Sequence record: NC_054928.1
Source: Escherichia phage vB_vPM_PD112
Direction: 5' to 3' (one strand)
Length of the DNA: 64,000 bases
Shown: positions 7,761-41,890 of the stretch, in pieces
Layout of the letters: every line of letters begins with the position of its first letter
Numbering within the stretch: position 1 is the stretch's first letter
Position numbers and translations under genes: made by a program
The notes under the pieces: model-generated
What the model was told of the DNA's origin: nothing
Seen by the model: the letters and a program-made list of their open reading frames with translations, nothing else
Database searches by the model: none

Positions 7761-7980
7761 CAATGTAAACTGATTTTTTCAACTTTCTTACTTCACTACG
7801 TAATTGACGATTTAACTCATCTTTAACTTCTGAATCAATGCCTTTCATTCTACGCCATTTATCTGAGCGAAAAATGTTTTCAACCATATCTTTATGACTT
7901 ACGCCATCAGGAGCTTTGCGCTTTCCAAAATAGTCATAATCACGTACTTTTAAATCTTTACGACGATATGTTTTACCCAT
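7687..7980 (-). CDS. hypothetical basic protein
   Basis: Track ORF starts at GTG; internal ATG (residue 16) preceded by AGGAAA. Confidence 0.5.
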   Translation of the reverse strand: MGKTYRRKDLKVRDYDYFGKRKAPDGVSHKDMVENIFRSDKWRRMKGIDSEVKDELNRQLRSEVRKLKKSVYIDDDFDYNTSQRVAKRKSNECYRYS

Positions 7981-8155
7981 GGAGTTTAATTTCCTTAGCA
8001 ACTGAACTAAATACAGCACGATCACAAATCATCTGTTTATGTAACTTAAGTATAAGATAATAAACTTCAAAACCGTTTACATAAGTAACACGAACAACAT
8101 TACCATTAATAAAATAATATTGTCCCTTTTTAATTTCTTTATCAACCACAACCAT
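7973..8155 (-). CDS. hypothetical protein
   Basis: ORF track; ATG start; early promoter just upstream. Confidence 0.45.
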   Translation of the reverse strand: MVVVDKEIKKGQYYFINGNVVRVTYVNGFEVYYLILKLHKQMICDRAVFSSVAKEIKLHG

Positions 8156-8185: not shown

Positions 8186-8215
8186 ATAATACCACAGTTT
8201 GAACTTGTTGTAAAC
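8186..8215 (-). promoter_or_regulatory. T4-type early promoter (GTTTAC -35, TGGTATTAT extended -10)
   Basis: Conserved -35 GTTTACA and UP-like TTTCACAAAGTTG on minus strand; approx coordinates. Confidence 0.5.
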
Positions 8216-8295
8216 AACTTTGTGAAAAATATTTTAGGGAATGATAAGAAAGGAACGATAGCTTAGAATGGTAATATACAGAATGTGAAAAAGAA

Positions 8296-31264: not shown

Positions 31265-31738
31265 TTATTTGAACGATTTAACGTACTGAATAGAACCTTT
31301 ACTATTCACGAAAGCGATTTTACCATTTTTATTATACATGGTAGCAGTACGCTGATAACCATAAGTTTGTTTACCAGATTGATAACCAACTAATGCGAAA
31401 TTATCTTCACCCATTTTATTCTGTTTAGCGCGAATACGTTCATGTCCATGCGCCATAAGAACCTTAGCATCACCAGTTGCAATGGATCGACGAGTTTTTT
31501 CATCTTCAACTGTATTAACAAAATCATCAAATGAATCAAATTTAGCATGAGATTTATTATACAGTTTTCCATCTACTGCATAATTATATCCCTGTACATC
31601 CATCTCAACTTCTGTGCCATCATCTAATACAGCAGTAATTTTCTGTCCTTTTTTAAATTTCAAAAGATCAGTAAAAGATTCAGCAATAATTTGAGAATTA
31701 ATAGCTGCTTCAGTAATAAATTCTTGATATGTTTTCAT
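31265..31738 (-). CDS. internal (capsid-packaged) protein with capsid targeting sequence
   Basis: N-terminus MKTYQEFITEA matches T4 internal-protein CTS (MKTYQEFIAEA) with xxE cleavage context; lies next to e as ipIII does in T4. Confidence 0.65.
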   Translation of the reverse strand: MKTYQEFITEAAINSQIIAESFTDLLKFKKGQKITAVLDDGTEVEMDVQGYNYAVDGKLYNKSHAKFDSFDDFVNTVEDEKTRRSIATGDAKVLMAHGHERIRAKQNKMGEDNFALVGYQSGKQTYGYQRTATMYNKNGKIAFVNSKGSIQYVKSFK

Positions 31739-31815: not shown

Positions 31816-32346
<531 letters not shown>

Positions 32347-36350: not shown

Positions 36351-36824
36351 TTATTTGATTTGTTTAGCAGACCAAATGCGGTCTTTGATAATTTTTTGGA
36401 TGTCTTCAACATATTCAAGAGAGTGAACATGTGGGTTATCTTTGAAACTATAAGCACGAGCTAACTTTTGGCCTTCAGTTTTGATTACTAAAAGCTCTTT
36501 AAGGATAGCTTCATATCTGGAGATAATTCCTTTAACGATATTTTTCTCTTGTGTGACTTTAGGATCTGCTTTAGGAGCAGGTTTACCCGAAGCCTTTGCA
36601 AAAGCAGCGCCAGTAGCAACTAAACTTTTCCAGGCCATACTAACTGCATTTCCCGTAAATCCTTCTGCTTTCATGTCGCGAGCAAACTGGAATCGTGATT
36701 CGTCAGAAGCATCTTTATAGGAATATTTACCCGCTGCAATGGCTGCTTTTGCGACAGCTTGAATTTCGGTGCTAGATGCTTCATTTAACACCGCTTCATT
36801 TAAAAATTGAGCATATGATTTCAT
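36351..36824 (-). CDS. internal (capsid-packaged) protein with capsid targeting sequence
   Basis: N-terminus MKSYAQFLNEA is CTS-like; own late promoter TATAAATA upstream; terminator hairpins on both sides. Confidence 0.6.
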   Translation of the reverse strand: MKSYAQFLNEAVLNEASSTEIQAVAKAAIAAGKYSYKDASDESRFQFARDMKAEGFTGNAVSMAWKSLVATGAAFAKASGKPAPKADPKVTQEKNIVKGIISRYEAILKELLVIKTEGQKLARAYSFKDNPHVHSLEYVEDIQKIIKDRIWSAKQIK

Positions 36825-36861
36825 CTTATTTCCTGTTCTAATTCGTGGATTTAATATATTA

Positions 36862-36869
36862 TATTTATA
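36862..36869 (-). promoter_or_regulatory. late promoter TATAAATA (gp55-dependent)
   Basis: Exact TATAAATA on minus strand about 40 nt upstream of internal protein gene start (36824). Confidence 0.6.
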
Positions 36870-36872
36870 CTA

Positions 36873-36900
36873 AAAAGCCCCAACCTTTCGGTCGGGGCTA
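36873..36900 (-). terminator. rho-independent terminator ending tRNA/stable-RNA transcript
   Basis: Minus-strand GCCCCGACC-GAAA-GGUUGGGGC (9-bp stem, GNRA loop) then UUUUU. Confidence 0.7.
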
Positions 36901-37215
36901 AGCCTTGCGGCAACCTTGTAGGGGTTCCACCTGCTAAGGCAAGTGTTTGTACGAAACGCCGGGATTCGAACCCGGTTATTAAGTAGTTGACGCTACTCAA
37001 TATTTTTAAAAGGCCATATCTCGACCATATCCGAACGTTCCGTCAAAAACGCTACTCGGCTTACGGCAAAGATATTTCCTCGAATCGATAATTTGGTGCG
37101 CCGTTTCTGCTGTGATGTAAGAGGGCATCAACAAATCATAAAGATTTATTAACACAATTCCTTACCCAGGGAACATCAGTCCGACGACTTACCGGTAGCG
37201 ACCCGGTTTCTTGTT
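36901..37215 (-). ncRNA. putative stable small RNA region (T4 species 1/2 RNA-like), includes a tRNA-like T-arm
   Basis: No ORF; lies between tRNA-Arg and a strong terminator; CCGGGTTCGAATCCCGG T-arm-like element plus 7-bp acceptor-like pairing near 36945-37045; boundaries not resolved. Confidence 0.35.
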
Positions 37216-37292
37216 TGGTCGAGGCAGAAGGATTCTAACCTTCAACCAACGGATTAGAAATCCGTTGCTCTATACAATTGAGCTATGCCCCG
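37216..37292 (-). tRNA. tRNA-Arg (anticodon UCU)
   Basis: Hand-folded cloverleaf; 7-bp acceptor stem with one G-U; anticodon loop TTTCTAA; encoded CCA. Confidence 0.7.
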
Positions 37293-37295
37293 TAA

Positions 37296-37961
37296 TTAAA
37301 ATTTCATTTTTCGACCTTTAAACCATCCTTCTGGAATTGGGTCAGTTTTCTTAATACGTTTAGAAACTTTTTCATCTAATGAATGAATCCACATCATGCC
37401 AAATTGGGAATTCTTTTCACCTTGTTGGTGTTTATTTCTGGCGTGAGATTCTTTCATTTTATTAATAGTTTCAGGAGTATGATGCTTATTTAAAAATCTG
37501 CTATTATTTAAAAATTTTTCCCTGTATTCAGGAGTTGACCACAAGCGTTTAAATACATTTGAACCATTTTTACGATATTTTTCTTGAAGTAAAATATCAT
37601 TTTTAAAACGTGACTTAAACGATTTAGCTCCTTTTAAACTAGCGTCTTTCTTCTGATTTAGCATCTCAGGAATATTTATATGATCCCATCCACCTTCACC
37701 GCCAAGTTTTAAATTATACACATCAGGTCTATTTAAAAACTCTTCTGTGACAATATTTTTCTCGGCTTCAAGCATAGATTCTTTATCGTCAAAATATTCT
37801 AATATTTCTTTAGAAAAATTTTCTATACCATACCTGTCTTGGGCTCTTTTTAATAATTTACCAGAACCCATATATCCATCATCTAAATTTTCGGTAGAAT
37901 GCACACCAATATAAATTTTATTATTAATTTTATTTGTTATTTTATAAGCGTAATGGAACAT
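37296..37961 (-). CDS. segB: GIY-YIG homing endonuclease SegB
   Basis: 221 aa; YAYKITNKINNKIYIGVHST GIY-YIG motif; inside tRNA cluster as in T4. Confidence 0.85.
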   Translation of the reverse strand: MFHYAYKITNKINNKIYIGVHSTENLDDGYMGSGKLLKRAQDRYGIENFSKEILEYFDDKESMLEAEKNIVTEEFLNRPDVYNLKLGGEGGWDHINIPEMLNQKKDASLKGAKSFKSRFKNDILLQEKYRKNGSNVFKRLWSTPEYREKFLNNSRFLNKHHTPETINKMKESHARNKHQQGEKNSQFGMMWIHSLDEKVSKRIKKTDPIPEGWFKGRKMKF

Positions 37962-38002
37962 AAATATCTCCTATTTCTAAGAGTATTTATGTTCCCAAAA
38001 TA

Positions 38003-38076
38003 TGACCCAGACCAGATTCGAACTGATAACCTTTCCCTTATGAGGGGACTGCTGCTAACCATTGAGCTACAGGGCC
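38003..38076 (-). tRNA. tRNA-Ile (anticodon CAU; may score as Met)
   Basis: Hand-folded; T-arm ATCAG/TTCGAAT/CTGGT; anticodon loop CTCATAA; one acceptor mismatch. Confidence 0.65.
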
Positions 38077-38082
38077 TTGATA

Positions 38083-38155
38083 TGCTGATTGACGGAATCG
38101 AACCGCCGACCTTCTCATTACAAGTGAGTTGCTCTACCTACTGAGCTAAATCAGC
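38083..38155 (-). tRNA. tRNA-Thr (anticodon UGU)
   Basis: Acceptor GCTGATT/AATCAGC; anticodon loop CTTGTAA; T-loop TTCGATT. Confidence 0.8.
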
Positions 38156-38162
38156 GAAATTA

Positions 38163-38249
38163 CGGAGGCGATAGGATTTGAACCTATGAGTCGCCGGAGC
38201 GACTGCCGGTTTTCAAGACCGGTGCATTAAACCACTCTGCCACGCCTCC
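38163..38249 (-). tRNA. tRNA-Ser (anticodon UGA), long variable arm
   Basis: Acceptor GGAGGCG/CGCCTCC; anticodon loop CTTGAAA; long extra arm; T-loop TTCAAAT. Confidence 0.8.
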
Positions 38250-38251
38250 AG

Positions 38252-38325
38252 TCTCCGTGGCAGGATTTGAACCTACGACATTCTGCTCCCAAAGCAGACG
38301 CTCTACCAAACTGAGCTACACGGAG
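38252..38325 (-). tRNA. tRNA-Pro (anticodon UGG)
   Basis: Acceptor CTCCGTG/CACGGAG; anticodon loop TTTGGGA. Confidence 0.8.
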
Positions 38326-38337
38326 TAAATTAAATTT

Positions 38338-38409
<72 letters not shown>

Positions 38410-38415
38410 AAACTT

Positions 38416-38502
38416 TGGTACGAGAAGTGGGACTCGAACCCACAAGGAAATCATTCCGCAGCATTTTAAGTGCTGTGCCTTTACCAATTTGACCATTCTC
38501 GC
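38416..38502 (-). tRNA. tRNA-Leu (anticodon UAA), long variable arm
   Basis: Acceptor GCGAGAA/TTCTCGT; anticodon loop CTTAAAA; encoded CCA. Confidence 0.8.
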
Positions 38503-38508
38503 TCTATA

Positions 38509-39141
38509 TTATTTATTACGTGAAAAAGATTGTTCTATCAATTCTGGACACTTTCGTTCTATCCATTTTCTAGCTTTTTGTGGGCTTATACCTATTATTT
38601 TAGCAGCTTTACTAACCCATCCAAATTTAGAATAATCGATTTTAACTAATTCTTCGTAAATTTCATCAGTTAAAATCTTTTCATTAATATTTACCAGTAA
38701 ATGATATAATTTATTATCATTAGCAATTTTAATGAATCTTTTATAGTTTCCGCCTTTACTTAAACCTAATGAAGTAATTGCAGATGATATAGTAGCCGAA
38801 TTTAATAGTGCGTTTAAAATTTCTTCATCACTAACATTATAACGCTTTTTATTATTTTTAATATTTTTACCAGCAAAAGTATCAGTTTGCGAATGGCAAT
38901 TTGGACATAATAATCTTAAATTTGATTTAAGATGATTTTTGTTATTTCCATCAATATGGTCTAATTGCAGAACAATATGCTTATTTTGCCATTTTGAAAT
39001 TTTACAAATTGCGCACTCATATGGAAAAATATTTTCTTTTATTATTTTATCTTTCAGCTTTCCTGTACTAAAATTTGGATGTTTTCCTTCAAAAATTTCA
39101 GCTAATTTAGTATCCATAATATGATTCCCAATTATTAACAA
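38509..39141 (-). CDS. HNH homing endonuclease (mob-like)
   Basis: HNH motif LDHIDGNNKNHLKSNLRLLCPNCH; 210 aa; stop 6 nt from tRNA-Leu 5' end. Confidence 0.75.
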   Translation of the reverse strand: MLIIGNHIMDTKLAEIFEGKHPNFSTGKLKDKIIKENIFPYECAICKISKWQNKHIVLQLDHIDGNNKNHLKSNLRLLCPNCHSQTDTFAGKNIKNNKKRYNVSDEEILNALLNSATISSAITSLGLSKGGNYKRFIKIANDNKLYHLLVNINEKILTDEIYEELVKIDYSKFGWVSKAAKIIGISPQKARKWIERKCPELIEQSFSRNK

Positions 39142-39227
39142 AGGCTCTCAAGCAAGAACCCTTGATGATAGAGGGTATTAATCAGTGCGATATGAGTTAA
39201 TAATAACAAATAATTCTTAAAGCATAT

Positions 39228-39515
39228 TTACCATTTATAATAATACATATTTACGATGCATTCAAGACCCAAAGGATTCTTGAAAATATCATATTCAAGA
39301 GGACCTTTTTCCGTTTCAATAAAGAAATCAAAATTTACTGTATTAAATTTACGGTCTTCCTTCACTAATTTAACTTGAGAAGATGAACGATCAATGTAAA
39401 CCTTTTCAACTTCAAAACATGTTAAAATGCCATAATCATCAATCAAGACTTTAGCTGCTTCTTGATCATATTTATATCCATTTTCAATGGATGATACTTT
39501 CGCATAAAGAATCAT
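39228..39515 (-). CDS. hypothetical protein
   Basis: ORF track. Confidence 0.45.
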   Translation of the reverse strand: MILYAKVSSIENGYKYDQEAAKVLIDDYGILTCFEVEKVYIDRSSSQVKLVKEDRKFNTVNFDFFIETEKGPLEYDIFKNPLGLECIVNMYYYKW

Positions 39516-39517
39516 TA

Positions 39518-39901
39518 TCAGCCTTCATCAACAATAGTGTGAGTATGGGCATTTACGATTTGCCACCAGTCAAAACTATCGCCAAATCGTTTTGATTTAT
39601 TGTCTTCAATAATTTGGCGTAATTCATCTTCTGTTTCAGCATACGCAATCAAATCATCATATCCACCACGAGGATAATAATTATCACCTGCAAAAAGTAA
39701 AAAGTTTGGTTTAATGTTATTGAACTCTTCAAGAGTAATAACTTTTCCTGACGGTTGAACAATCTCTACATATTTATATCCCAATTTTTGAGCAGCATCT
39801 ACTGCTTCAAGCAGGGTATCATGAGCCCATCCAATTTGGCAATCTGGCTTTTCAGATGGATTAGCCTGATAATCCGCGTACACTTTATACATTCTATTCA
39901 C
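39518..39901 (-). CDS. hypothetical protein
   Basis: ORF track. Confidence 0.45.
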   Translation of the reverse strand: MNRMYKVYADYQANPSEKPDCQIGWAHDTLLEAVDAAQKLGYKYVEIVQPSGKVITLEEFNNIKPNFLLFAGDNYYPRGGYDDLIAYAETEDELRQIIEDNKSKRFGDSFDWWQIVNAHTHTIVDEG

Positions 39902-40079
39902 CTTTAGAAATTTTATCCATAACGATAGCGATTAAACCAATTAAAAATGCTACTACAAGTGAAAAAACATTTTCTGCTGTAGTCAATAATCCGCATATAA
40001 ATCCAACAAACATTGAAAAACTAAAAGCGGAAACAGAAATTGCAATAGCAACATTTCGAATTAATTCACAACGTTTCAT
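39894..40079 (-). CDS. small membrane protein
   Basis: Hydrophobic 61-aa ORF; early promoter upstream. Confidence 0.45.
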   Translation of the reverse strand: MKRCELIRNVAIAISVSAFSFSMFVGFICGLLTTAENVFSLVVAFLIGLIAIVMDKISKGE

Positions 40080-40107
40080 TTTATTCTCCTCAGTAGTTGA
40101 TAGGGTA

Positions 40108-40137
40108 ATAGTATCACAACTAAAACCCTATGTAAAC
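40108..40137 (-). promoter_or_regulatory. T4-type early promoter
   Basis: GTTTACA ... TGATACTAT with upstream TTTCACAAAGTTG. Confidence 0.5.
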
Positions 40138-40149
40138 AACTTTGTGAAA

Positions 40150-40407
40150 TTATTTTAAATCTTCTAATCGTTTCTTCATCTTAGAACCGTTCTTAGCGAT
40201 TTCGCCTGCATCAGAGCATAATGCTAAAAGCGCTTTAACTTTAGTTTGGTCTCCTTTAAAAGATGAAGGATCGACTGCAGCAGCAAGTTCTTTAATACGA
40301 GAGAAAAGACGCTCAGCTTCAGCTAAAGCCATTCCAAGCTTTACTTCCATACCATGAGAAGATTCAGTAATAGTAGTTTTTGTAGCAAACTCTTTGAAAG
40401 TTTTCAT
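40150..40407 (-). CDS. internal-protein-like small protein with CTS-like N-terminus (ipI locus)
   Basis: N-terminus MKTFKEFATKTTITE resembles capsid targeting sequence; immediately upstream of 57B. Confidence 0.55.
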   Translation of the reverse strand: MKTFKEFATKTTITESSHGMEVKLGMALAEAERLFSRIKELAAAVDPSSFKGDQTKVKALLALCSDAGEIAKNGSKMKKRLEDLK

Positions 40408-40437
40408 TTTATTTTCCTAATTAATTTTGATGAGATA

Positions 40438-40467
40438 ATAGTATCACTACCTCATCAACGTGTAAAC
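40438..40467 (-). promoter_or_regulatory. T4-type early promoter upstream of ipI-locus gene
   Basis: Near-duplicate of the 40108-40137 element. Confidence 0.5.
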
Positions 40468-40479
40468 AACTTTGTGAAA

Positions 40480-41176
<697 letters not shown>

Positions 41177-41177
<1 letters not shown>

Positions 41178-41890
41178 TATAGTACCTTTAGTGTATTTTT
41201 AATTTTAGAAAAAAGTTCTTCAAGAGAACCATCGTTTGTAATTACTAAATCGCCATCACGAATTGGCAATCCAGCTTCTGTAATATGAGTATCATTGGAT
41301 TTTTGACCAGGACGAACTACATGAATTACTGTAGCACCCATCGCCCTAGCCGCATCCATTTCATGATCTTGACGAGTATCAGGAACGATATAATAATCAT
41401 AACCTGAGTTAAATTTATCAAGATAATCTAAAGCAAATAATTTTACCCAATACATGCGGTCGAAGTTATTAACAATCAAATCCGTACCTAGGGCTTGCAT
41501 CAGACGACGGACTGACCATTGATCTTCAATATTATTTATAACGTCAGCAATCTTGTTAAATGCTACGAAATTAACTGCGTCATCAAAAACAAACACACCT
41601 TTAATTGGGCTTTTACTATTAAGATAGCAAAATGCTTGTTCCATAATCGTAATTACTTCTAATTTAGTCAGATTTAAATTAGTCTCACGATCATAGTCAA
41701 TTCCTTCAAACTCTTTACGAGTTAAACAAGGATAGTCAGTGTTTGCTGCAAATACACCCCATGCATAAGCCAATGCATCCTTAATAGGACCAGCAAGTTG
41801 ATATTTAACTGCAGAATAATTATTCATAATAAAATCTGCAGTAGTATCTTTTCCACTACGCTTTACACCACTTAAAAAGATTAGTTTCAT
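41177..41890 (-). CDS. 1: deoxynucleoside monophosphate kinase gp1
   Basis: P-loop GVKRSGKDT; near-identical to recalled T4 gp1. Confidence 0.9.

Follow-up and report, generated by a model that had tools for sequence, protein, structure and literature searches.

The analysed stretch of 64,000 nucleotides from Escherichia phage vB_vPM_PD112 (NC_054928.1), referred to below as the window, encodes on its minus strand an 85-residue internal head protein, Ip5 (Table 1). The translation opens with MKTFKEFATKTTITESSHGMEV and closes with RLEDLK, and in full it reads MKTFKEFATKTTITE (the capsid targeting sequence, CTS) followed by SSHGMEVKLGMALAEAERLFSRIKELAAAVDPSSFKGDQTKVKALLALCSDAGEIAKNGSKMKKRLEDLK (the mature part). 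The minus-strand gene order is gene 1, 57A, 57B, ip5, trna.4-like, trna.3-like, trna.2-like, an HNH endonuclease and the tRNA cluster, which matches the order 1-57A-57B-ipI-trna.4-trna.3-trna.2-tRNAs of T4 and is also syntenic with ime09. The initial annotation had placed the 85-residue open reading frame (ORF) directly upstream of 57B; the ORF is real and does adjoin 57B at lower coordinates, but with respect to transcription it lies downstream of that gene. The assignment to the ipI locus was correct, as both the gene order and the flanking DNA are near-identical to T4 57B-ipI-trna.4. This interval (57B-trna.4) is one of two polymorphic internal protein (IP) loci, the other being denV-e. Over the 1 kb around ip5, the window is 98–98.7% identical to many Tequatrovirus phages, including CrRp10 and ime09, and at the 20-kb scale it is a mosaic with a top match of about 96%.

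Several features of the surroundings were recorded alongside. The upstream neighbour 57B/Acb1 is still named 'RNA ligase' in RefSeq phage records and in PHROGs. The HNH endonuclease ORF (38509..39141, minus strand; phrog_14736, 6e-124) occupies the position of tRNA-Gln in T4, next to tRNA-Leu on one side and the trna.2-like gene on the other; no tRNA-Gln was detected by ARAGORN in 36500..39500, and phage Lutter has the same HNH endonuclease arrangement. A SegB-like GIY-YIG homing endonuclease (37296..37961, minus strand) is flanked in the tRNA cluster by tRNA-Arg and tRNA-Met(CAT), an arrangement shared with T4. A plus-strand ORF of 44 residues (40354..40488), which overlaps the ip5 start and promoter, was judged to be spurious, because it has no family support and runs antisense to conserved signals.

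Table 1. Features of the ip5 locus, in window coordinates, with the evidence for each
Feature	Position	Strand	Evidence
57B = Acb1, anti-CBASS phosphodiesterase; upstream neighbour and left locus border	40480..40935	-	Pfam PF23474, 2.6e-60; phrog_755
Upstream copy of the 69-nt direct repeat, holding the 3' end of 57B/acb1 (final codons and stop) and the ip5 promoter	40427..40495	-	Repeat search
Predicted T4-type early (sigma-70) promoter of ip5: G-TTTACA, 17-nt spacer, TG-n-TACTAT	40438..40467	-	Consensus and pattern scans
14-bp hairpin across the ip5 -10 element; with the promoter, a PeSL-type cassette junction	40427..40458	-	RNA fold
Shine-Dalgarno (SD) AGGA, 7 nt 5' of the ip5 ATG	40415..40418	-	Read from sequence; kept in T4 and ime09
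ip5 coding sequence, 85 codons and stop; product, internal head protein Ip5	40150..40407	-	ORF list, ATG start
Codons 1-15 (MKTFKEFATKTTITE), CTS (propeptide) with predicted gp21 site ITE/S	40363..40407	-	Aligned with T4 IPI propeptide MKTFKEFTSTTTPVSTITE
Codons 16-85 and stop, predicted mature Ip5*, three-helix unit	40150..40362	-	AlphaFold model
Downstream copy of the 69-nt direct repeat, holding the 3' end of ip5 (final codons and stop, EDLK*) and the early promoter ahead of the trna.4-like gene	40097..40165	-	Repeat search
trna.4-like gene, 61-aa predicted membrane protein; downstream neighbour and right locus border	39894..40079	-	phrog_1692, 5.8e-35; DNA near-identical to T4 trna.4

Promoter, repeats and cassette structure

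The early promoter proposed for this gene in the initial annotation was recovered, as was its near-duplicate at 40108..40137 (minus strand), which carries an identical hexamer pair and precedes the trna.4-like gene. Both sites are annotated as promoters in the phage Lutter record. In DNA alignments the ip5 promoter is near-identical to the promoter ahead of T4 ipI, and by this comparison it is the same early promoter. The two promoters are embedded in a direct repeat of 69 nt, whose copies are 81% identical and 330 nt apart and share an exact 31-nt core (40131..40161 and 40461..40491). The possibility that the duplicate promoter is a chance sigma-70 match was rejected in view of the exact core, the 69-nt repeat and the conservation in T4 and ime09. 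The 19-mer TTTCACAAAGTTGTTTACA occurs 5 times in the window with up to 3 mismatches, against 0.08 occurrences expected. A third exact copy of it (8209..8227, minus strand) lies elsewhere, in the early promoter (GTTTACA-n-TGGTATTAT) that precedes an ORF of 60 residues (7973..8155), and the upstream extension of the -35 element is common to distant early promoters in the window.

Each repeat copy contains a hairpin spanning the -10 element. Folding of the RNA of 40408..40485 (minus strand) gave -18.3 kcal/mol (z = -4.3), and the hairpin of the downstream copy has z = -3.0. The stems are copy-specific, GATGAG...CTCATC in one and ATAGGGT...ACCCTAT in the other. No late promoter TATAAATA was found directly upstream of ip5, the nearest on the same strand being at 41533..41540, inside gene 1; late Ip5 would therefore presumably be supplied by read-through of the hairpin. 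For head proteins of the T4-type IP class an early promoter is nothing unusual: T4 IPI, IPII and IPIII are synthesised abundantly within the first minutes and at late times (PMC6071114).

When the window was aligned with T4 and ime09, hardly any differences were seen from the 57B end through promoter, leader and SD to about coding base 45, nor in the whole of the DNA from the following promoter into trna.4; replacement is limited to the segment that encodes the mature part, which is the cassette arrangement already on record for this locus. To place this in a wider set, 36 IMG/VR loci encoding a 57B relative were surveyed together with the window (37 loci), and both flanks were available in 33. 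Between 57B and the trna.4-like gene these 33 loci hold 0 (2 loci), 1 (15), 2 (9), 3 (6) or 4 (1) ORFs with a CTS. Over all 37 loci, 59 such ORFs fall into 17 families whose mature parts are unrelated, and 3 of the 59 are Ip5. The locus is thus hypervariable, as the initial annotation had stated. In IME537 (L005, 559..1126) and in one further locus (L006, 3029..3599), ip5 is followed by a second ip cassette, each of the two having its own promoter copy; the second cassette encodes MKTFKEFINE/AADVKVEFIYTGKK. At the other extreme, L010 and L011 are empty sites with zero ip genes.

The boundaries of the cassette can be placed from the repeats. In both 57B/acb1 and ip5, the exact 31-nt repeat takes in the stop and the three codons before it (DLK*), and the Mosigvirus homologs of Ip5 diverge right after RLE and continue into an unrelated tail. 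Taken together, these two observations suggest that the ip5 cassette has its 3' recombination joint within the coding sequence. In the published PeSL model, genes are inserted, deleted or stacked when copies recombine (PMC2839356, PMC4122927), and the promoter and hairpin repeats that flank ip5, judged by their sequence, fit this model of cassette shuffling. The repeats would serve both as portable regulatory units and as homology patches for swapping, stacking or losing ip cassettes.

Targeting sequence, mature domain and spread of Ip5

The CTS-like N-terminus noted in the initial annotation (MKTFKEF...TITE) is of the same kind as that of T4 IPI. T4 IPI opens with MKTFKEFTSTTTPVSTITE, followed by the cleavage point and then ATLTSEV; the MKTFKEF of Ip5 equals its first 7 residues, and I13-T14-E15 of Ip5 belongs to the same TITE as residues 16–19 of T4 IPI. 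IP propeptides comprise 10–19 residues and are removed by gp21 (PMC9026906, PMC9958956). Experiments with T4 IPIII have established that the first 10 residues are enough for capsid targeting, that positions 4 and 7 count for targeting, and that positions 8 and 10 (I-x-E) count for processing (PMC9026906, PMC9958956). The aromatic residues F4 and F7 of Ip5 and its I-x-E site are consistent with the experimental CTS rules (PMC9026906). A further indication of where the CTS ends comes from a relative of the VR26 type (P0004), in which SSHGMEV is again the mature start but is preceded by another CTS, of 10 residues (MQTYQTFITE); since the CTS is swapped and SSHGMEV is kept, the boundary between the CTS and mature modules is placed at E/S. 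Cleavage by gp21 after Glu15 (ITE/SSHG) is inferred from these comparisons, and Ip5 is probably targeted to the prohead, processed at this site and injected. For virion presence or cleavage of Ip5 itself, no direct evidence was found here or in the searchable literature, and a literature search for virion proteomics of Ip5-carrying phages returned nothing usable.

The start motif MK[TS][FY][KQ][ED]F is confined to 2 ORFs in the 64-kb window, both in classical internal-protein loci. The second of these (31265..31738, minus strand) encodes 157 residues beginning MKTYQEFITE/AAINS, matches phrog_3155 'internal virion protein' (6e-102) and lies directly downstream of the lysozyme gene e (31816..32310). 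The second IP locus of this phage thus holds one Ip gene, compared with ipIII and ipII in T4.

The predicted mature protein, Ip5*, has 70 residues, a mass of 7.5 kDa and a pI of 9.2; 13 of the 70 residues are Lys or Arg, and the net charge is +3. An AlphaFold model (7 sequences; mean pLDDT 83.6) is all-helical with zero strands, and its helices comprise residues 15–44, 54–63 and 67–84. The pLDDT is >90 across residues 21–80, residues 1–20 are poorly defined, and the propeptide has a pLDDT of 53–57. A sequence search of the PDB with Ip5 gave chance matches only (E >= 0.76), a Foldseek search of the PDB with the model gave nothing below E = 7, and a Foldseek search of BFVD matched its own family alone.

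Ip5 of the window is an exact match to UniProt Q38630 (Ip5 of phage T6). The initial annotation had not named the allele, which by this identity is one already called Ip5. The corresponding protein-collection entry, Q38630_BPT6, is described as 'Ip5, n=43, Tequatrovirus', and the exact sequence is present on 205 contigs. The profile phrog_3499 'internal head protein' was matched with E = 1.2e-49 by residues 1–85, over a profile of 85 positions. The T2 protein is 99% identical to Ip5 of the window, and that of RB70 (Q38378) is 92% identical. When the mature part was used in tblastn searches, it was 100% identical in T6, RB3 and RB68 and 98.6% identical in T2, at least 90% identical in 267 phage records, and 100% identical in some 230 records. 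For T4 IPI, 280 records carry a mature part with at least 90% identity; on these counts Ip5 and IPI are alleles of about equal frequency. Records annotated 'Ip5' include those of ime09, wV7 and fHoEco02. Repoila et al. (1994, EMBO J 13:4181; cited in PMC12373910 and PMC3012670) reportedly gave the first description of the polymorphic ipI locus and named Ip5.

Beyond these close relatives, a HMMER scan of 1.84 billion cluster representatives matched 3 clusters, all of them T-even internal proteins: Ip5 itself and two 94-aa proteins of about 40% identity, which together with RB69ORF127c represent the Mosigvirus-type version. By this search the family is confined to T-even phages, and no cellular or distant phage relative lends it a function. 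In Pfam the sole match was DUF7890, below threshold (0.076), and in NCBIfam there was no match for either Ip5 or T4 IPI. Across the Ip5 family, 22 positions are invariant. The window gene is the ip5 allele of the polymorphic ipI locus in Tequatrovirus and as such is already known; the gene and its name, like the CTS, the hypervariable locus and the promoter repeats, can all be found in the literature and in current annotations.

Proposed role of Ip5 and its alternatives

Among the internal proteins, targets are known only for Ip1, Ip2 and Ip3, each of which inhibits a single GmrSD-type Type IV restriction enzyme and gives no cross-protection (PMC12373910). The anti-restriction role implied for the window gene in the initial annotation was not borne out in published tests: when ip4-10 were expressed against the other active GmrSD groups in a 2025 study, none of the variants tested was reproducibly inhibited (PMC12373910, Supplementary Fig. 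9). The 'ip5' of that study is equated here with Ip5 of the window by name, the numbering following the 1994 paper. In addition, T2 and T6 are restricted by the GmrSD of CT596, ECOR21 and ECOR17 (PMC12373910). Since both phages carry Ip5 and are restricted nevertheless, Ip5 probably fails to neutralise these three GmrSD, at least at its natural dose. A literature text search for 'Ip5' in a phage context gave nothing usable.

Our overall account, to which we assign a probability of about 80%, is that the window carries the T6-identical ip5 allele of the ipI locus, and that its product, by analogy with other internal proteins, is packaged, cleaved, injected and active against a host defence. We propose that Ip5 would be made early from its own promoter and late through read-through from upstream late promoters. 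The CTS would take it into the scaffolding core of the prohead, where the gp21 protease would make its cut, and a few hundred copies of the 7.5-kDa mature protein would remain with the DNA and be injected along with it. Once in the host, Ip5 would most likely bind and neutralise one specific defence protein other than the GmrSD variants examined to date. That Ip5 is injected and inhibits a particular defence is our best guess at its function, based on the precedent of all three T4 IPs, the neighbouring acb1, and the replacement of alleles at this locus rather than point variation within them.

Three other explanations were weighed against this account. Ip5 could be mainly a generic basic filler, which neutralises DNA charge and aids packing or ejection with no specific host target. 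The basic character of the mature protein is in keeping with this idea, as is the behaviour of the T4 IPs, which are present at ~360 copies each, bind DNA at low salt and touch DNA phosphates through lysines (PMC9026906, PMC3012670); the lack of a GmrSD target for ip4-10 points the same way (PMC12373910). We nevertheless consider it unlikely, since the net charge of Ip5 is small, specific targets are known for all three T4 IPs (PMC12373910), and a filler leaves unexplained the 17 unrelated mature families, the 0–4 cassettes per locus with their empty sites, and a mature sequence that is 100% identical over some 230 records. Still less probable, in our estimate, is that Ip5 is chiefly an early factor for host take-over, acting for example on translation or transcription, whose packaging is secondary or vestigial. 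A strong early promoter does stand directly upstream, and the T4 IPs are abundant in the first minutes, with a proposed role in host shut-off (PMC6071114), but the gene is dispensable at the level of the locus, other phages being without ip5, and the CTS and cleavage site are conserved even through exchange for another CTS type. Such conservation indicates that packaging is under selection, which argues against the take-over role.

There is, finally, hardly any chance that the ORF is non-functional, either a chance ORF or a decaying remnant. Apart from its short length and the absence of a Pfam or NCBIfam family, nothing speaks for this. The ORF is intact and near-invariant in hundreds of genomes, it has its own SD and promoter, its fold is predicted with confidence, and its Mosigvirus-type homologs, at 40–46% identity, keep the 22 invariant positions; this conservation effectively refutes the idea. 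Of the remaining explanations, the roles in DNA charge and in early take-over appear to account for the population pattern less well than does a specific inhibitor.

A more precise version of the inhibitor proposal can be put forward only tentatively, and we hold it to be possible rather than probable: that Ip5 inhibits a host defence outside the tested GmrSD groups, possibly a non-Type IV system, through a three-helix fold unrelated to that of IPI*. A distinct and non-redundant target would fit with the retention of a near-invariant Ip5 by approximately half of the sequenced T-even phages, and with the presence in Mosigvirus of a homolog beside IPI. Ip5 is among the commonest alleles at the ipI locus and is present in the classic phages T2 and T6. 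Its target, if found, would add a pair of defence and counter-defence and make the host range of therapeutic T4-like phages easier to predict.

Comparison with known systems

The closest known systems are the Ip5 proteins of T6, T2 and RB70, which represent the same gene in the same locus, with the same promoter and flanks and no substantive difference. T4 IPI shares with Ip5 the locus, the early promoter, the leader, the SD and the CTS type (MKTFKEF...TITE). The two are also similar in the size and charge of the mature part (70 aa and pI 9.2 for Ip5, 76 aa and pI 9.0 for T4 IPI), while the propeptide is shorter in Ip5, with 15 residues compared with 19. Similarity at the DNA level stops after the TITE codons. 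In the proteins, the BLASTP alignment is limited to residues 1–22 of Ip5 and residues 1–26 of IPI (14 identities in 26 columns), in agreement with the initial annotation, in which the rest of the ORF was said not to resemble T4 IPI; the mature parts are unrelated. IPI* consists of two beta sheets flanked by N- and C-terminal helices (PMC3012670), whereas Ip5 is modelled as all-helical, which suggests that the lack of relationship between the mature proteins extends from sequence to fold. In function, T4 IPI/IPI* inhibits the Type IV restriction enzyme GmrSD of E. coli CT596 (PMC12373910). This enzyme restricts T2 and T6, which carry Ip5 and are without IPI, unless Ip1 is supplied (PMC12373910).

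A homologous mature domain is found in RB69ORF127c (46% identity to Ip5, E = 2e-23), which belongs to the family with 22 invariant positions. Related to it are the Mosigvirus 'internal head proteins' P0006 and P0007, and the CTS-like N-terminus of the whole group ends in x-N-E/A. The RB69ORF127c type differs from Ip5 in having another CTS variant, MKTYMNFYQNLSLNE/A, and a longer C-terminal tail. It also lies in the other IP locus, between e and denV (L004, 2438..2719), whereas ip5 lies in 57B-trna.4, which means that the Ip5 mature domain has been transferred between the two IP loci. An IPI gene is present in RB69 as well (PMC6024577), and the coexistence of an Ip5 homolog with IPI in this phage argues for different jobs for the two.

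With regard to the flanks, the closest parallel is provided by the promoter-early stem-loop (PeSL) cassettes described in T4-like phages by Arbiol et al. (2010) and Comeau et al. (2014). A PeSL is defined as an AT-rich stretch with an upstream stop codon, a strong early promoter, a stem-loop over or near the -10 box, and an SD with an ATG (PMC2839356). The ip5 flanks contain this full composite, with a stop in an AT-rich stretch, a sigma-70-like promoter, a stem-loop over the -10 element and an SD with an ATG on both sides, so that the unit is repeated around the variable gene. The difference lies in the stems, which are A/T-rich and copy-specific in the ip5 flanks, compared with the G-tract/C-tract stems of the PeSL of RB49 and phi1.
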